This document shows, one piece after another, positions 3 through 28,098 of a stretch of 31,137 nt of DNA. The position numbers and the translations under genes were made by a program. The stretch covers positions 1 to 31,137 of the forward strand of contig CAZOPS010000004.1 in NCBI GenBank assembly GCA_964581885.1, in the 5' to 3' direction. The notes beneath the pieces are model-generated. The model had not been told where the DNA came from, did not search any database, and worked only from the letters and a program-made list of their open reading frames with translations. Position 1 is the stretch's first letter; every line of letters starts with the position of its first letter. Source of the DNA: an uncultured Candidatus Saccharibacteria bacterium. GTDB taxonomy: Bacteria; Patescibacteriota; WWE3; JAUXAW01; JAYEID01.

Positions 3-596
3 GTTGTTCGCGGTAAAAAGTTTGATTCTCACTACTTCCTGCCTGCATTTCCGTTTTTTGCGTTGATTGTTGGGAAGAATGTTACTGATGCCCTTTTTAT
101 ACTAAGCGAAAAAGTTAGTTCAAATCTAAAATTCGGATTGGAAAGCTCTAAACAAAATATAAAGCCTAAACTAGAAACTTTGAAAGATTCGGAATTCGTT
201 TTTAAAGCTTTTCATATTTTTTTTGTGTTTTTGATTTTCTTCCCAGCATTAGGTAAGTCTGTACATACCGGCCTAGTTTATGCTCGGCAGGATACGCGTA
301 CACAAGCTAGCCAATGGATTGATAATAATGTGGAACCAGGTACTTGGGTAGCAGTTACGGGAACAGAAGATATTGAGATAGTTGCAAAAGGGGTAGAGAG
401 AAAGACATATAAGAAGCTGAGTATTTTAGATAAGTTCGAGCAGTATGACTTTATAATTGTTACTGATGAAAAGCGTGTTTATACAATGGAAAAAATGGCT
501 GACAACGGTTTTGAATTAGTTCAAGAGTACACGAACGTTAACCCCACTCGCCGCGGACCCCATGTTTGGATTTTTTTAAGATCTAATTCGGAATGA
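3..596 (+). CDS. C-terminal part of an ArnT/PMT-like (GT-C) membrane glycosyltransferase, 5'-truncated by the window
   Basis: The frame is open from base 3 (VVRGKKFDSHYFLPAFPFFALIVG...). YFLPAFPFFAL and DTRTQASQWI resemble the late TM segment and periplasmic tail of GT39/ArnT-like proteins, and the gene lies in a glycosylation cluster. Confidence 0.6.
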   Translation, partial: VVRGKKFDSHYFLPAFPFFALIVGKNVTDALFILSEKVSSNLKFGLESSKQNIKPKLETLKDSEFVFKAFHIFFVFLIFFPALGKSVHTGLVYARQDTRTQASQWIDNNVEPGTWVAVTGTEDIEIVAKGVERKTYKKLSILDKFEQYDFIIVTDEKRVYTMEKMADNGFELVQEYTNVNPTRRGPHVWIFLRSNSE

Positions 597-2248: not shown

Positions 2249-3634
2249 ATGAGAATTATTTTTCTTTCCAACCAACTTTTTGATTATCCGCTTAAAACCA
2301 ACAAGTGGCATGTTGCTACCCGGGTAGCTGATCGGGGGCATAAGGTGCTTTTCGTTGACCCGCCAATCCGTTTCCGGAAAGTAGTAAAGCAGATTTTCCA
2401 AGGGAGGTGGCCGCTCCAACGTTTATTGTCAGGTGTTTGTGCCCCGACCGGCAATTCCCTAAAGCCAGGTTCTGGGACCGGTCTTAGAACCTGGCTTTTA
2501 TCCTTGCCGGCCGTTAATTTAAAAGTTTTCACGCCACTAACGCAGACCATCTCCGAATCTCCGAACATGACAACTTTCAATGTTAACCGTATGAAACTGC
2601 ACATCCCTGATTTTTTTGATGGTGAAGCAATCCTGTGGGTTTACAATCCAGCAATGATTGACTATATTGATCGGATTCCGCATAGACTGCTGGTTTATGA
2701 TTGTGTGGATGATTATCCCTCTATGGCTAATTATCAGCGTTTGGGTTTTTCTGAAGAAATTGCGGAAAGGGAAGAAAAGATTGCGAAAAGAGCAGATATT
2801 ATTTTTACAACTACTAAGAATTTAGCTAATAAAATTCGTAAGTGGAATGATAATGTTCATTATGTAGGTAATGCGGGAGACTACAGCCGCTTTGCTTCTG
2901 CGGCCAAAGCGGAAATTACAAATAACCCCCCTTCGCTAAACCTGCCTGCCGGCGAGGCAGGGCTACGGGGGGCAGGCAAATTAAAAATTTCAAATGAGGA
3001 AAAGAGGAGAGCCGGCAAGGAAAAACCGCCGCAGGAGAAGCCCCTGGGGCTAGATCCGCAGAAACCCCTAGGGCTGGGGAATGCGGCGGTTCTTAAAGAC
3101 ATACCCCACCCCTGCATAGGCTTTACGGGAGCAATTGACGATTACAAAGTGAACCTTTCTCTTCTTGTAAAAATTGCAAAAGACCATCCGGAAAAGTCTT
3201 TGGTTTTAGTGGGACCAACTGGAGTAGCAGATACCCAGCCTGATTTGCGTGACTTGAAAAAGCTGGACAACGTTTATTTTATGGGAAAACGACCTTATGA
3301 AGAAATGCCCCAATTCCATGCCAGCTTTGATGTTTTTATAATTCCCTATAATTTGAATGACTATACCGTCAAAGGTTGCTTTCCGGTTAAGTTTTTGAAT
3401 GCTCTTGCTGCGGGGTTGCCTGTTGTGGTTACTAACCTTCCCGCTTATGAGGATTTTTCGGATGTGGCTTATATTGCGGGGGATGACGAGAAATTCAGTA
3501 AAACAATTGATAAAGCTCTGAATGAAAATAATCAGGAAAAGGTGGAAGAACGGATGCGTGTGGCTCGTGAAAATTCTTGGAACAATAAGGTAGAAAAAAT
3601 GCTCCAGCTTGTTTCTTCTCAGCTTTCTGCTTAG
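2249..3634 (+). CDS. GT-B (GT4/TuaH-like) glycosyltransferase with in-frame palindromic insertions
   Basis: Motifs LLVYDCVDDY, ADIIFTT, IGFTGAIDDYKV, FPVKFLNALAAGLPVV. Confidence 0.85.
   Translation: MRIIFLSNQLFDYPLKTNKWHVATRVADRGHKVLFVDPPIRFRKVVKQIFQGRWPLQRLLSGVCAPTGNSLKPGSGTGLRTWLLSLPAVNLKVFTPLTQTISESPNMTTFNVNRMKLHIPDFFDGEAILWVYNPAMIDYIDRIPHRLLVYDCVDDYPSMANYQRLGFSEEIAEREEKIAKRADIIFTTTKNLANKIRKWNDNVHYVGNAGDYSRFASAAKAEITNNPPSLNLPAGEAGLRGAGKLKISNEEKRRAGKEKPPQEKPLGLDPQKPLGLGNAAVLKDIPHPCIGFTGAIDDYKVNLSLLVKIAKDHPEKSLVLVGPTGVADTQPDLRDLKKLDNVYFMGKRPYEEMPQFHASFDVFIIPYNLNDYTVKGCFPVKFLNALAAGLPVVVTNLPAYEDFSDVAYIAGDDEKFSKTIDKALNENNQEKVEERMRVARENSWNNKVEKMLQLVSSQLSA
2448..2510 (+). repeat. Hairpin element family H1, copy A (in-frame)
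   Basis: ttccct-AAAGCCAGGTTCT-gggaccggtctt-AGAACCTGGCTTT-tatcc; perfect 13-bp stem plus outer stem ccggcaa/ttgccgg. Confidence 0.9.
2941..2961. repeat. CCTGCC-type palindrome (in-frame, nested)
   Basis: cctgcctgccggcgaggcagg; related copies at 24097 and 28078. Confidence 0.85.
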
Positions 3635-6254: not shown

Positions 6255-6279
6255 ATATTCAGGACCTGGGACTGAATAT
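6255..6279. repeat. REP-like hairpin at the 3' side of the RAYT
   Basis: ATATTCAG-gacctggga-CTGAATAT, identical to 7096-7120. It is preceded by a duplicated atattcaggac (6244-6254) and abuts the RAYT stop codon. Confidence 0.85.
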
Positions 6280-7049
6280 CACTGTGAGGACAGGATTTTT
6301 AGGTATTGCTCTCGCATTTCCTTCTGTTGCGCCTTCTTCTGGTTTTTAAATCTTTTGAACCAACCAAAGTCATCGTCTATGGCTATACTTTCAAGTCTTA
6401 TTGGTTCGAACTCGTCAATTTCAGCTGAGACGAATTCTTTGTATTCTTGCGGATCTTGGACCAGGTTTGTTACGCGATCTGGTTTCAAAAAAGCAATCTT
6501 GTTTGGTCCATTTACATAAGTTGAGAAGCTGGACCAAGGATATTCGATCAATTGATTGACAGACGATAGTCCTAACTTTTTGGGATTTAGATGATGGTAA
6601 CGAGTTAGGTGCAGCAGCTGTTCGTCTGTTTCTACAAGAATGCTTTTGTAATTTCCTTCGAAAAGCCGTCCGCTTCTTTCTAAACGCACATTAAAATAAT
6701 TAGTGTAGGAAAGTCCTATCTTATGCATATAGAAAGCTATTCCCCTTTCTTTTTTTTGTTCCAGGGTTAGGTGATAGTGATTAGGCATCAAGCAGAGGGA
6801 TAGAATTTCGATAGGGGGTTTAATTCGCTTTTTTTCTAACCAAGCGAGTACAGCATTTTTTCCTTGCCTTGTTTTTGTTTGCTTCAAACGTTGTTGTAGT
6901 TCACTATATGGGCAATTGTGATTCAGATAATGGTTTAAAATGGAGATAAAATGTTTGTAGTAGGTTCTATCAAGAAAGATATTACGTTTTTCGATTCCGC
7001 GGTTGTAAATATGATATATGTTTCCAACTTCCAGTGTTCTTCGAGGCAT
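6279..7049 (-). mobile_element. REP-associated tyrosine transposase (RAYT, Y1_Tnp HUH family)
   Basis: N-terminal YHIYNRG...IF, HUH motif LMPNHYHL, G.LFEG.YKS, catalytic Tyr in RYHHLNP, then YPWSS. Confidence 0.92.
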
Positions 7050-7095: not shown

Positions 7096-7120
7096 ATATT
7101 CAGGACCTGGGACTGAATAT
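7096..7120. repeat. REP-like hairpin at the 5' side of the RAYT
   Basis: atattcaggacctgggactgaatat, an exact direct repeat of 6255-6279. Confidence 0.85.
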
Positions 7121-10923: not shown

Positions 10924-12165
10924 ATGAGAGTTTTATTTCAATCTCGTATAGATTTGTTTGATCGTCGTGGGGGAGATACTGTGCAAATGGAAAGAACTGC
11001 ACAGGAGCTTGGTGATCTTGGCGTGGATGTGGATATTGATTGTTCGCCAAAAAAAGATTTATCAGCGTACGACCTGGTTCATTTATTTAATATTGATTGG
11101 CCAGCTAACGTATATTTGTGTGCAAAAAATGCAAGAGATCACAGTAAGCCTCTTGTTTTTTCTCCTATCCATCACCCTTTTGAGGAAATAGAGCGGTATG
11201 AGCGCGAGTATCGGTTCGGATTACGTAGAATTATTAACACGATTTTTAGAAAGCGTGAGCAGAGGGAGAAGTTTAAAGATTTTTGTCGCGCTTTAGCTGA
11301 TCCCAAGAAAATACCCTCTACTATTATCGAGTTCAAAAGGGGAATTTTCAAAGAGCAGCAGGAGCTTTTGGAATTGGCTGATGCCGTTTTGGTGCAGACG
11401 GATGCGGAGGTGGATGATATTAGGGAGGATTTTGGTTGGTCGACCAAGGGTAAGATAATGGATTTATATACCGGCGGCGAAAGAAAAAAGCCAGGCTTTA
11501 AGAGGCAGTCCCAAAGCCTGGCTTTGGGGAATTCGCTACCGGCTCTCCTGACCGCACCGGTTTACAAGGTAGTTAACGGTGTTGATCGGCGATTTGCGGA
11601 GGCAAAGCCGGATTGGTTTAAGAAGAACTATGGTTGGGAGAATTTTGTGCTTTGTGTTGGCCGTATAGAACCTCGAAAAAATCAGTTGTCGGTAATTGAG
11701 TCCGTTTCGAATGTTAAATGGAAAATGGAAAATGTTAAATTGATCTTTCTTGGAAAGATATCTTGGAGGCATCCGGAATATGCGTTGCGCTTTAATAATA
11801 TGGTTAGGAAATATGACTGGATCAGACACATTGAAAGAATTCCTTATGAAAAGATGGGGGCGGCTTATGCTGCTGCCAAGGTGCACGTTTCTGCAAGTTG
11901 GTTTGAAACTACTGGTTTGGTAAGCTTAGAAGCAGGGCTTGCTGGTTGTAATGTTGTGGCTACTGGAGAGAGAGCACGGGAATATCTGGGTGATTTTGCA
12001 TTTTACTGTGATCCTGGTGATTTAGATTCTATTACTAAAGCGATATCTAAAGCAAGTGAAACCGCTGTTAATCCTGAATTTAAGCAGCATATTTTGAATA
12101 ATTTTACTTGGGATAAAACTGCAGAGCAAACCTTAGCAGTTTACAAAACAATACTTAACAATTAA
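10924..12165 (+). CDS. GT4 glycosyltransferase with in-frame insertions
   Basis: GGDTVQMERT, VGRIEPRKNQ, SWFETTGLVSLEAGLAGC. Confidence 0.9.
   Translation: MRVLFQSRIDLFDRRGGDTVQMERTAQELGDLGVDVDIDCSPKKDLSAYDLVHLFNIDWPANVYLCAKNARDHSKPLVFSPIHHPFEEIERYEREYRFGLRRIINTIFRKREQREKFKDFCRALADPKKIPSTIIEFKRGIFKEQQELLELADAVLVQTDAEVDDIREDFGWSTKGKIMDLYTGGERKKPGFKRQSQSLALGNSLPALLTAPVYKVVNGVDRRFAEAKPDWFKKNYGWENFVLCVGRIEPRKNQLSVIESVSNVKWKMENVKLIFLGKISWRHPEYALRFNNMVRKYDWIRHIERIPYEKMGAAYAAAKVHVSASWFETTGLVSLEAGLAGCNVVATGERAREYLGDFAFYCDPGDLDSITKAISKASETAVNPEFKQHILNNFTWDKTAEQTLAVYKTILNN
11471..11542 (-). repeat. Hairpin element family H1, copy C (in-frame, reverse orientation)
   Basis: Minus strand reads ccggtagcgaa-ttcccc-AAAGCCAGGCTTT-gggactgcctctt-AAAGCCTGGCTTT-tttct-ttcgccgccgg. 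Confidence 0.88.
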
Positions 12166-12320: not shown

Positions 12321-15300
12321 ATGGATCTTTATCTTCTTTTTGGCATTTTTATATTTCTTCTTGCCTTATTTCTAGGATTTCGTGACCCCAAAAAAGGCTT
12401 TTTGTTTTTGATTTTTCTGCTTCCTTTTAACCACAAAAAAACTCTTGGATTAGTGTCTTGGAATTTAACACCGCCTCGAGTTTTCTTGGTGGGCTTTGTT
12501 CTGGGCTTTTTTATTTATGTCTTACGCAATGAAAAAAACTGGAAACAATGGTTTAGAAGGTTTTGGAAAGATAAGTTTTTTGTCTTTCTTGTCTTCCTTT
12601 GGGTGGTGCGGGGTTTCTCTCTTTTTCGTTCAGCTAATATTGAAATGGGTTTGGGAATGTGGGGTTTTTCTACAGCTGTATTATTCTTTTATATAATTTT
12701 TCGATATTTGGTAATTAGATACGGTGGCAAGTTTTTAAAGCAAGCGAGTGATTTGTATCTAAAACTAGGATTAGTTATAGGTGCTTTTGGGGTTGTGCAG
12801 CTGATTCTTTATGTGACCCAAGAGGTAGTTTTTCTTGGATTGTGGCCAATTGAAGATGGACTGGCTCGGGTAGGAGCTACTTTTTGGGATATTAACCACT
12901 ATGCTGCTTTTTCTGCAAGTGTTGCTCTCCTTTTCTTTGGGCGTTTTATTCTTTCTAGCAACCGGGAAGCTACACTTAATTTTCTAGCCTTTTTGTTTAT
13001 GGTTTTGATGGTGGGACTTACATCATCCCAGAGCGGTATGGTTTTTTTGCTAGTGGGATTTGTGGTAGTTAGCAGTATTCTTCTTTTTAGGAATTACAGA
13101 AAAAAGTATTCTTTTATCTTTGCTTTAGTATTGTTTCTTGTGCTTGCTTCGGGAATATACTTCTTTCGTCTTGGTCTTACTACTGATAGTAATTTGCGGC
13201 AGGTTTTAAAAATTAATTTTACGCTGCGCGACGATTCCGTTGCTTCACATTATCATTTAGCTCAAGGAGCCTTAGAAATTTTTAAGGAAAAACTCTTGCT
13301 AGGTTGTGGTTATGGCAGTTTTAATGAATGCTTTCGTAACACGCCTATTATCGATACTTACTTAGAAAGAGATCCAGTTGGTGAGGCTAGAATACCTCCG
13401 CACAGTATTTGGTTTGGTGCTCTAGCTGAGACGGGGGCTTTAGGTTTCTTTGCTCTCTTAGGTTTGTTTGCTGTACTTTTTCAACGGTGTTTTAAAAACA
13501 TTTTTAAGTCTCAAAATAATTCTCAGTTTGTACAAAATTCTATCTATTTAGGTATTTTATTGGGCGTTAGTTCTGCAGGTTTGGTGTATTCATATAACCT
13601 GTTGTTTTTCTGGTTTCTGTTATTCCTAGTTCAAGAAGAATCTCTTGGGGATGCTTTATCTTTAGCTAAAGTTGATTTTTGGCCCAGGTTTAAGAACTGG
13701 CTTGTTTATAATAAAGAGATATTAATTTTGACCTTTTTAGTATTGTTCTCAGGCACTTTTATGTTCTGGTTTTTGTGGAGAAATGCCCTTATTCCTTGGG
13801 ACGAAGCTATTTATGCGGGCGTTTCTCGCGAACTGGTTGAGGGCGGTGATATTTGGACTTTATATTGGAATCGAGAGCCTTTTTTTGAAAAACCACCTTT
13901 GTTTTTCTGGTTACAAGCAATATCCTTCGTGTACTTTGACTTCAAACCTTTTGCAGCCCGGTTGCCAGTAGCACTTTTTGGGATCTTGGGTGTGGTTATG
14001 ACTTACATTTTTGGAAAAAAGCTGTTCTCAAAGAGAGTAGGCTTATTTGGGAGTTTGTTTTTGGCAACCACAATTCATTGGGTTGCCTGGTCTCGAACAG
14101 CAATGCTGGATGTTCCTGCAGCAGTTTTGATTTTGTGTTCACTTTATTTTTTCTGGGAGAGTTACGTTAGGGCGGCCGATTCCCCAAAGCCCGGCTTTGG
14201 GACCGGTCTTAAAGCCGGGCTTTTATCCTCGGCCGCCTTGTTTGGGGTGTTTTTAGGGTTAACTTTTATGATGAAAGGACCAGTGGCGGTTGTACCGGCT
14301 GCAGTTGCTGTAATATTTTTAGCTGTAAATGGTCTTTTTCGCTTGGTTTTAGAAAGATTGCGACAACCGCAAATTTCTAATGACGAATTTCTAATTTCTA
14401 ATTGGGGAATTGGGAATTGGTTTTTGATTAGAATAATTAGGTCAATTAGATTAATTAGGTCAATTTTTATTCCCTTTCTACTTACTACTGTTTCCTTTCT
14501 GCTAGTTACAGTCCCGTGGCATTGGTTAATGATTGCTCGGCACGGAGAATCTTTTGTGGAGGAATATTTTGGCTATCATATTTTGAAGCGAGCGTCAGAA
14601 AGTATTGAGATGCACGGCCGCCCTTTTTGGTGGTTTAATATTGTGATTAGACACTGGGCTCGTCACTGGTATGTGGTGGGTTTGGTTGCACTTGCTGCTC
14701 TGGTTTCAAGTCTAGTCTTTTACTTCTTGAAGCGGTGGGGGGAGAGGGAAATTAGTCCCTCGCAGAAATCGGGACTGAAATTGAGAAATCTAGTCGCTTC
14801 GCTCCTTGAAATTGAAGATGAAAACTACGAGGCGGAGCTTTTCTTGCTGTTGTGGTTACTGCTGACATTTTTTATCTTTAGTGCTTCGGAGTCAAAGATA
14901 CAGTGGTACATAATACCTATTTATCCGCCGCTGGCTTTATTATGTGGGTGGTTTGTTGATAGGCTGTGTTATTTACTGGAAATAAGCTTCAGGAATTTTA
15001 AATTTAGAGTTTTAAATTTTAAATTAAAAGACTCTTTTATTGGTAATTTGTCCGCCGGTTGGCGGATTGTAATTTCCGGCGCCAGGGTTAGGTATACAGT
15101 ACTGGCAACTGTGGGTATCTTGGTTGTTGGTGTTAGCGGGTTGTTGTACTGGCACCGGATGTGGTTTCCGGAAAATCTTAATAGGCAAGTTGCGGAGCTT
15201 TCCGACCATGTGTGGAGAATTCCTGGAGAAGAGAAGAAATTTTATGTTGCGGATGCTCCTCCACCTCTTCCCATTTTTTATTCCGGTCTTAAGGTTACAA

Positions 15301-24096: not shown

Positions 24097-24116
24097 CCTG
24101 CCTGCCGGCAGGCAGG
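24097..24116. repeat. Perfect 20-bp palindrome
   Basis: CCTGCCTGCC|GGCAGGCAGG. Confidence 0.9.
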
Positions 24117-28077: not shown

Positions 28078-28098
28078 CCTGCCTTGCCGGCAGGCAGG
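28078..28098. repeat. CCTGCC-type palindrome inside a heptad run
   Basis: gaattttaaatt[cctgccttgccggcaggcagg]ttaaattttgaat. Confidence 0.85.

Follow-up and report, generated by a model that had tools for sequence, protein, structure and literature searches.

The DNA analysed in this work is a stretch of 31,137 nucleotides (nt) from an uncultured Candidatus Saccharibacteria bacterium (contig CAZOPS010000004.1 of assembly GCA_964581885.1), referred to below as the window, which is contig C4 of the genome under study (G000; 751 kb, 42% GC). Annotation places the relatives of this organism in Patescibacteria or candidate division WWE3; its congener is designated G001. Near its start the window carries a glycosyltransferase gene in which three short repeats lie one inside the other (positions 2912-2998): an AT-rich run with a period of 7 nt (heptads) is interrupted by a GC-rich hairpin, and the hairpin is itself split in its loop by a 21-nt palindrome. 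We propose that this is selfish or neutral repeat DNA in a disordered linker of the enzyme, and that the two GC-rich layers probably arrived there, or converted a hairpin already resident, as a ready-made 45-nt unit.

The original prediction, made from the letters alone, had described the three-level nesting and its in-frame translation; the quoted letters, the coordinates, the translation (...AEITNNPPSLNLPAGEAGLRGAGKLKISNEE..., within the open reading frame (ORF) of the enzyme) and the nesting were all confirmed from the sequence. When the palindrome alone is excised, the 18-mer that had been reconstructed as the middle element is obtained. In the predicted fold, as single-stranded DNA (ssDNA) or RNA, the block forms one extended hairpin with the palindrome atop an outer C6/G6 stem, in which positions 2926-2931 pair with 2967-2972. 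The folding energy of the block is no better than that of shuffled sequences (z = -0.9), so that it is recurrence, not stability, that argues for non-randomness.

The host protein is a two-domain GT-B (GT4-type) glycosyltransferase according to both Pfam and the structural model, with a core conserved across 79 homologs and orthologs in 38 of 41 relatives. Alignment of the orthologs, a check suggested with the prediction, bounds the insert: the alignments span residues 1-225 and 281-460 only, and the linker between the invariant residues F215 and P288 measures 74 amino acids (aa) here versus 21 aa in 59 of the 79 homologs. In the AlphaFold model (79 homologs; mean predicted local distance difference test score, pLDDT, 86.9) two stretches alone, residues 70-77 and 229-276, have a pLDDT under 50, and they coincide exactly with a second insert upstream and with this linker. 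Because the model is confident everywhere except at the inserts, both are predicted to be disordered loops added onto an intact fold, so that the nested elements would occupy a tolerant, surface-exposed position of the protein. The coordinates of all features are collected in Table 1.

Table 1. Positions of the nested stretch, its host gene and related features in the window
Feature	Position	Strand	Basis or remark
Glycosyltransferase gene, GT-B (GT4-type), 461 aa	2249..3634	+	Pfam Glyco_trans_1_4, Glycos_transf_1 and Glyco_trans_1_2 at residues 288-453
Second, independent in-frame hairpin element, residues ~62-92	2452..2514	+	at least 8 related copies in the genome
Left heptads AAATTAC AAATAAC (AT-rich run of 7-nt period)	2913..2926	+	sequence
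Expanded interdomain linker, residues ~226-280, missing in most orthologs	2924..3090	+	length comparison and pLDDT
GC-rich block, 51 nt (17 codons), within the heptad run	2927..2977	+	removal restores five regular AAATNNN heptads
Middle hairpin, left arm and loop (C5 TTCGC TAAA)	2927..2940	+	fits the family consensus
Inner 21-nt palindrome, 6-bp arms CCTGCC/GGCAGG	2941..2961	+	one base longer than the perfect 20-mer
Middle hairpin, right arm (GCTAC G6) and CAGG-type family tail (CAGGC)	2962..2977	+	predicted fold and consensus
Right heptads AAATTAA AAATTTC AAATGAG	2978..2998	+	sequence
Additional palindromic element of ~65 nt, also in the linker	3025..3089	+	RNA fold pairs 3025-3033 with 3081-3089
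RAYT-like Y1 transposase gene	6282..7049	-	Pfam Y1_Tnp 25 bits; NCBIfam REP_Tyr_transpos 39.7 bits (cut-off 80); 2.6 kb downstream of the glycosyltransferase gene
Perfect 20-nt copy of the inner palindrome	24097..24116	.	intergenic
21-nt copy of the inner palindrome	28078..28098	.	intergenic; AATTTAA on both flanks

Repeat families behind the three layers

All three layers are members of multi-copy repeat families, as the original prediction had supposed, and the two GC-rich ones have hairpin potential. The outermost layer belongs to the arrays of period 7, 14 or 21, of which genome G000 holds 201 (Tandem Repeats Finder, ~1% of bases), many of them flanking GC palindromes. An uninterrupted run resembling this one is read in frame within a different ORF (C22:3611-3650); the rejoined heptad run itself, for which the prediction had suggested a search, has no copy in G000 at 0-3 mismatches.

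The middle layer fits the family consensus CC-N-CC TTCGC YAAR GCTACGG N'-GG. Its exact reconstructed 18-mer has no copy in G000 at 0-1 mismatch and one at 2 mismatches, so that a search for the literal sequence failed, while the hairpin family is abundant: five to seven uninterrupted relatives occur in G000, and the core TTCGCYAARGCTACGG is found in at least 120 stretches of the species-representative genome collection from which the counts for this family were taken. The 122 matches listed come from ~120 genomes of Acidobacteriota, Verrucomicrobiota, Bacteroidota, Planctomycetota and Proteobacteria and from at least 17 genomes of the candidate phyla radiation (CPR). The suggestion that this repeat recurs in CPR genomes thus holds for the family and was too narrow, many phyla being involved. 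Chance alone would yield the bare core some thousand times. Its flanks are not random: CC stands directly 5' of the core in 106 of the 122 matches listed, the first stem level is paired in 77% (44% in shuffles) with exchanged pairs (G-C 54, T-A 28, A-T 5, C-G 4), and the fourth level is paired in 88% (60% in shuffles). Conservation extends to two internal mismatches and to a 3' tail of the CARG type. Because the flanks are non-random and the two outer stem levels covary, the middle layer is, as judged by sequence comparison, a member of a pan-bacterial covarying hairpin family. Rfam gave no family at threshold on the window, and only chance-level matches on 2380-3150.

Two tandem arrays of ~95-nt repeats (G000:C9:17700-17900 and C2:36050-36140) carry in each unit a CCTGCC...GATGAGGCAGG variant of the hairpin, followed by TTCGAC. 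Inspected by eye, the CCGATGAGG variant of C9 and C2 was considered as possibly hammerhead-like, a reading dropped for want of a GAAAC core.

The inner palindrome is a variant, longer by one base, of the perfect 20-mer CCTGCCTGCCGGCAGGCAGG, for which about 20-26 sites were counted in G000; the identical 21-mer is also present on C75, and variants with one mismatch or less occur at 5 more sites. It is a short, mostly extragenic palindrome in the manner of repetitive extragenic palindromic (REP) sequences: among 26 sites, just two (in the glycosyltransferase and in a PMT-like gene on C75) fall in the middle of a long open frame. Six of 19 copies in G000 lie within 25 nt of a period-7 array, neighbourhoods that make up 3.4% of the genome. 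In the class-level comparison set of 134 genomes the 20-mer (one mismatch or less) has a patchy distribution over 19 genomes (0 for the reversed control), and the exact 20-mer is found in 35 viral contigs of the IMG/VR set ranging from 38 to 68% GC.

The manner of its insertion can be read from a tRNA gene. In tRNA-Val(CAC) of G000 (C2:22835-22928, minus strand; L029:336-429) a perfect 20-mer lies in the D-arm between TTAGA and GC, and the orthologous tRNA-Val genes of G001 and G004 are intact at 74 nt, without the palindrome. Between the filled and the empty site exactly 20 nt are gained and no base is duplicated. The interrupted gene scores 57 bits with the Rfam tRNA model and is mis-called by ARAGORN; it may be dispensable, because tRNA-Val(TAC) and tRNA-Val(GAC) are encoded elsewhere in G000. 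By their flanking letters, copies in G005, G011 and one IMG/VR contig also occupy the D-loop position; the junctions in tRNA-His of G005 and tRNA-Leu of G015 were compared with intact tRNAs, and on G011:C6 the palindrome splits the D-stem of a tRNA-Asn fragment, not the D-loop. The flanks favour TARA↓G (TTAGA↓GC, TAAA↓GC, TAAGA↓GA; the arrow marks the insertion point), with a weak signal when 47 sites are pooled (A in 43% at position -1, G in 41% at position -2). The palindrome thus inserts precisely and without target duplication, apparently at TARA↓G-like sites, e.g. tRNA D-loops and hairpin loops.

The combination of middle hairpin and palindrome is itself repeated. The 45-nt stretch 2927-2971 recurs on C75 (96% identity), C18 (89%) and C2 (90%), and the palindrome sits at the identical loop junction (YAAR↓...↓GCTWCGG) in four outer copies of G000 (C4, C18, C75 and C2:29993); composites with this junction are found in 14 of the 134 class genomes. 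The claim that the elements nest in each other's loops is supported by this TAAA↓GC junction. The inner part is nearly always the 21-nt form, so that the composite measures 45 nt or 15 codons, a multiple of three that lets it survive in frame in many genes. A C5/G5 stem is common to the three 45-nt copies of G000 and one copy of the congener, and is present on both arms in none of the uninterrupted middle copies. When metagenome contigs were scanned, the 45-mer with the C5 stem had no matches, and the stem-free exact 37-nt core had 28 copies in 26 AT-rich contigs. At least 18 of the 28 are surrounded by an open frame of 290-844 aa. No fewer than five reading frames and both orientations are represented among them, and the host genes include dnaX, mnmA, tilS, uvrB, uvrC, a pol X and several glycosyltransferases.

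A second in-frame case lies next to the window. A PMT-type (GT-C) gene is split between C75 (1480-1695) and the start of the window (3-596), and on C75 it contains the composite in frame and in reverse orientation. Here an outer hairpin holds a second outer hairpin, which holds the palindrome, and the whole triple-nested GC block of 78 nt (26 aa) is absent from the G001 ortholog; the latter has a 39-aa insert of its own at another site. In-frame insertions absent from orthologs are thus seen in unrelated genes, i.e. the glycosyltransferase, this gene and those of the metagenome contigs. The palindrome can in turn be split at its centre by further hairpins, as in G004, in G003 and on C3 (at C3:31470-31501 by a hairpin of ~20 nt, an additional level of nesting). 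The same loop junction in many genomes and these deeper centre splits support the view that hairpin apices are recurrent insertion points. The recurrence of the composite likewise supports its being, on sequence evidence, a prefabricated 45-nt unit, in which case the last two "events" of the nesting need not have occurred at the glycosyltransferase locus.

Order of events in the linker

The linker is an insertion hotspot, as had been proposed: four close relatives have differing element contents at this position and most homologs have none. In all four lineages (this organism and those of P0002, P0003 and P0004) heptads lie on both sides of a GC element, which ends in a shared 3' junction, GGCGGAC (here GGCAGGC), followed by three heptads. 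The interior of the element differs, being 16 nt in P0004, AG-rich in its left half in P0003, and the composite here; that of G001 is extended by 24 nt that form another small hairpin, with AGCC repeats at its borders. In P0005 and in more distant homologs there is no element at the linker position. The palindrome is found at this locus only in the genome under study among the orthologs compared, and the hairpin stem of the relatives is CCGCC/GGCGG instead of the C5/G5 found here. Because the 3' junction is common to the four lineages and the palindrome is present only here, the comparison indicates that a GC hairpin within the heptad run is ancestral to the four and that the palindrome is lineage-specific. 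The order originally read from the nesting (heptads, then middle hairpin, then palindrome) fits these orthologs; the assumption that three events took place at this locus is supported only in part, given the probable prefabricated unit and the polytomy of the gene tree.

We would read the stretch as follows. An AT-rich run of 7-nt period is the first layer, a GC hairpin of ~30 nt from the many-phyla family, inserted in it, is the second, and the 20/21-nt palindrome at the 3' edge of the hairpin loop (TAAA↓GC) is the third. The heptad run would have contained a GC hairpin since before this organism parted from three close relatives, and the 45-nt composite then most likely arrived whole or overwrote the resident hairpin by conversion. 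Such a composite would spread within and between CPR genomes and, as a multiple of three, stay in frame; the glycosyltransferase, still working, would tolerate the translated product as a loop of low complexity in its disordered surface linker. The agent would be a hairpin- or ssDNA-directed nuclease or transposase, as suggested by the precise insertion without target duplication.

The three layers might instead have been inserted separately in situ, first the heptads, then the middle hairpin, and last the palindrome by a machinery that recognises TARA↓GC in a hairpin loop, a course that we consider possible and rather doubtful. The palindrome is independently mobile, the TTAGA↓GC site of tRNA-Val resembles the loop junction TAAA↓GC, and the substrates of such a step exist, namely uninterrupted middle copies with TAAAGC or CAAGGC loops, and in the relatives a GC hairpin at the same junction without a palindrome; composites of other genomes vary in their outer stem, and deeper apex insertions occur at other loci. 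Against it stands the stem: C5/G5 is present in all three 45-nt composites of G000 and on both arms in no uninterrupted copy, while the relatives have CCGCC/GGCGG. Because the local stem is thus specific to this genome, replacement or insertion of a unit is favoured over insertion in situ. In addition, the composite is common as an exact unit across many genes, and the nested block of the neighbouring PMT gene is present or missing as one piece.

Two further elements lie in the same gene. The second insert of the protein, in a region of 39 aa here versus a median of 18 aa in homologs, corresponds to an independent hairpin element (2452-2514) with 13-bp arms around a GGGACCGGTCTTA loop, of which two further copies occur in the window (~11508-11533 and 14179-14229); the linker of P0004 contains the GGGACCGGTCTTA loop with different stems. 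The palindromic element at 3025-3089 is shared with P0003, in which its inner arms pair without a mismatch, and is lacking in G001, and P0004 has a different hairpin element in its place.

Enzymes that might move the elements

Small genes of the GIY-YIG family, residing as cassettes at tRNA genes, are the best enzyme lead, and the RAYT-like Y1 transposases (RAYT, REP-associated tyrosine transposase) are the second. Genome G000 has ten small GIY-YIG genes of 79-113 aa (on C3, C6, C9, C30, C35, C38, C71, C2 and C55), at least 6 of which adjoin tRNA genes or tRNA fragments, including 3'-end duplicates. Hairpins of the middle type lie at the borders of 3 of these genes. For a minority of copies a hairpin was recorded at GIY-YIG borders in G000 (C30 with two cassettes, C35 and C2), G005:C20, G011:C6, G015:C1 and G004:C23; on C30 a tandem hairpin array stands upstream of one of the genes. 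The clearest arrangement is that of G005:C20 (L233, 760-1654), in which two tandem GIY-YIG cassettes follow an intact tRNA-His gene and each cassette ends with a tRNA-like 5' fragment, the palindrome exactly at the D-loop, and the 3' part of tRNA-His. A duplicated tRNA 5' fragment directly upstream of the GIY-YIG gene is interrupted by the palindrome in G011 and G015; the distance between palindrome and GIY-YIG gene at the tRNA-fragment junctions of G005, G011 and G015 is 15-80 nt. In G004 composites after two tRNA-Thr genes flank one GIY-YIG gene. Of the 69 palindrome copies cross-checked, ~4 are by a rough estimate no more than 150 nt away from a small GIY-YIG gene, versus ~0.2 expected. We tentatively suggest, with less than even confidence, that the 20-nt palindrome and the ~30-nt hairpin could be dispersed, gene-less derivatives of such cassettes lodged at tRNA genes, which insert precisely and without duplication into apices and D-loops, nest in one another, and have spread over CPR, other phyla and phages.

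That the hairpins are REP/REPIN-type elements moved on ssDNA by RAYT-like Y1 transposases appears unlikely, and more so than the GIY-YIG origin. The genome of 751 kb does contain four Y1_Tnp genes, one of them just downstream of the glycosyltransferase gene (Table 1), and insertion without target duplication would suit such an enzyme. Y1 genes are also more frequent in palindrome-bearing genomes (15 of 19) than in palindrome-free ones (46 of 115), counts in which related genomes are not independent. However, the flanks of all four RAYT-like genes contain hairpins of their own, different ones, and neither the CCTGCC palindrome nor the middle hairpin, so that the dispersed REP sequence typical of a REP/REPIN-RAYT system is missing from them; the gene in the window has the same 25-nt hairpin on either side (6255-6279 and 7096-7120), and one related copy of this hairpin was seen elsewhere in G000, at C10:21104. 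In four palindrome-bearing genomes (G006 with 9 copies, G018, G017 and G033) no Y1 gene was detected, and the NCBIfam score of the window gene is below its cut-off.

Other explanations, related systems and implications

Several observations weigh against the reading of a ready-made mobile unit. In the gene tree the clade P0001-P0005 is a polytomy, which gives no polarity and is compatible with stepwise nesting in situ. A 6-nt stretch of the G001 ortholog may be left over from the palindrome, in which case the composite would be of greater age. The glycosyltransferase protein of the window is a database singleton, and the assembly of this exact copy is therefore without independent confirmation. 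As to the agent, no enzyme is tied to copies of the elements (the four RAYT-like genes examined being flanked by other hairpins), the GIY-YIG enrichment concerns a minority (a few percent) of palindrome copies, and in other phyla a GIY-YIG gene lies within 700 nt at 4 of the 120 middle-hairpin loci listed. The translation of the insert and the enzyme activity are both deduced from sequence.

A function of the nested palindrome, as an mRNA structure that slows translation between the Rossmann domains or as a selected flexible linker, would account for the shared interdomain position of the inserts of several lineages, and the middle hairpin stem does covary across phyla; we regard it as very improbable, since the contents differ in every close relative and most homologs have no insert, the same unit occurs in several frames, in both orientations, in unrelated genes and between genes, and its folding energy is unexceptional. 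An assembly artefact, i.e. a repeat-induced chimera in a metagenome-assembled genome, is hardly credible, in spite of repeat copies at several contig ends, the split of the PMT gene between C75 and the window start just after the composite, and the singleton protein, because the reading frame runs unbroken through the block, the flanking heptads and 3' junction match three independently assembled relatives, and the same composite is present in many assemblies from different projects.

In behaviour, the elements are closest to the Rickettsia palindromic elements (RPEs), and also to the mitochondrial GC clusters and hairpin elements. RPEs (PMC10969869) are likewise palindromic and, besides their intergenic copies, occupy in-frame positions in numerous unrelated genes, where read-through adds a peptide to a tolerant part of the protein. 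They measure ~100-150 bp, outside the size of the units described here (20, ~30, 45 and 51 nt), so that the comparison is one of behaviour. Unlike RPEs, the present elements are GC-rich in an AT-rich genome, are built hairpin in hairpin, and are found in several frames and both orientations; their component families extend beyond one genus, being class-wide or present in many phyla and in viral contigs. Mitochondrial GC clusters, double-hairpin elements and repetitive hairpin-forming elements have been described in yeast, Allomyces and sponges (PMC8811140, PMC2800124). They too are small GC-rich hairpins scattered in compact AT-rich genomes, sometimes in coding sequence (PMC8811140, PMC2800124). 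Like those described here they vary in presence among close relatives and have no known dedicated transposase, a likeness drawn from the literature; the present hosts are bacterial, the linkage is in part to tRNA and GIY-YIG genes, and the composite is fixed at 45 nt.

REP/REPIN-RAYT systems share with the present elements the short, mostly extragenic, multi-copy palindromes, the RAYT-like Y1 genes and the lack of target duplication. Unlike in such systems, the hairpins beside the RAYT-like genes of G000 are of other kinds, no doublets of the inverted REPIN type were observed, some copies are in coding sequence, and there are palindrome-bearing genomes with no detected Y1 gene. With the IS200/IS605 family the elements have in common the lack of target duplication and, it appears, insertion beside a short motif and a dependence on hairpins, but the perfect 20-nt palindrome has neither distinct left and right ends nor a gene, and no TnpA-linked master copy was found. 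A miniature inverted-repeat transposable element (MITE) was rejected on the filled/empty pair of tRNA-Val, which lacks target duplication. A full-text literature search with the element sequences returned no papers, and one on CPR palindromic repeats inside coding genes gave nothing relevant; in the literature searched no publication on this class of elements was found, and it is apparently undescribed.

The elements have practical effects in that they break assemblies, create spurious low-complexity "domains" and can disrupt tRNA calls, as with ARAGORN on tRNA-Val. The nested architecture and the filled and empty tRNA sites offer concrete substrates (TAGA↓GC junctions and hairpin loops) on which small GIY-YIG or RAYT-like enzymes could be assayed. 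If the units really move, they would be among the smallest mobile DNAs known, and in the minimal genomes of CPR bacteria they would be a steady source of in-frame peptide insertions, including insertions in essential repair and translation genes.

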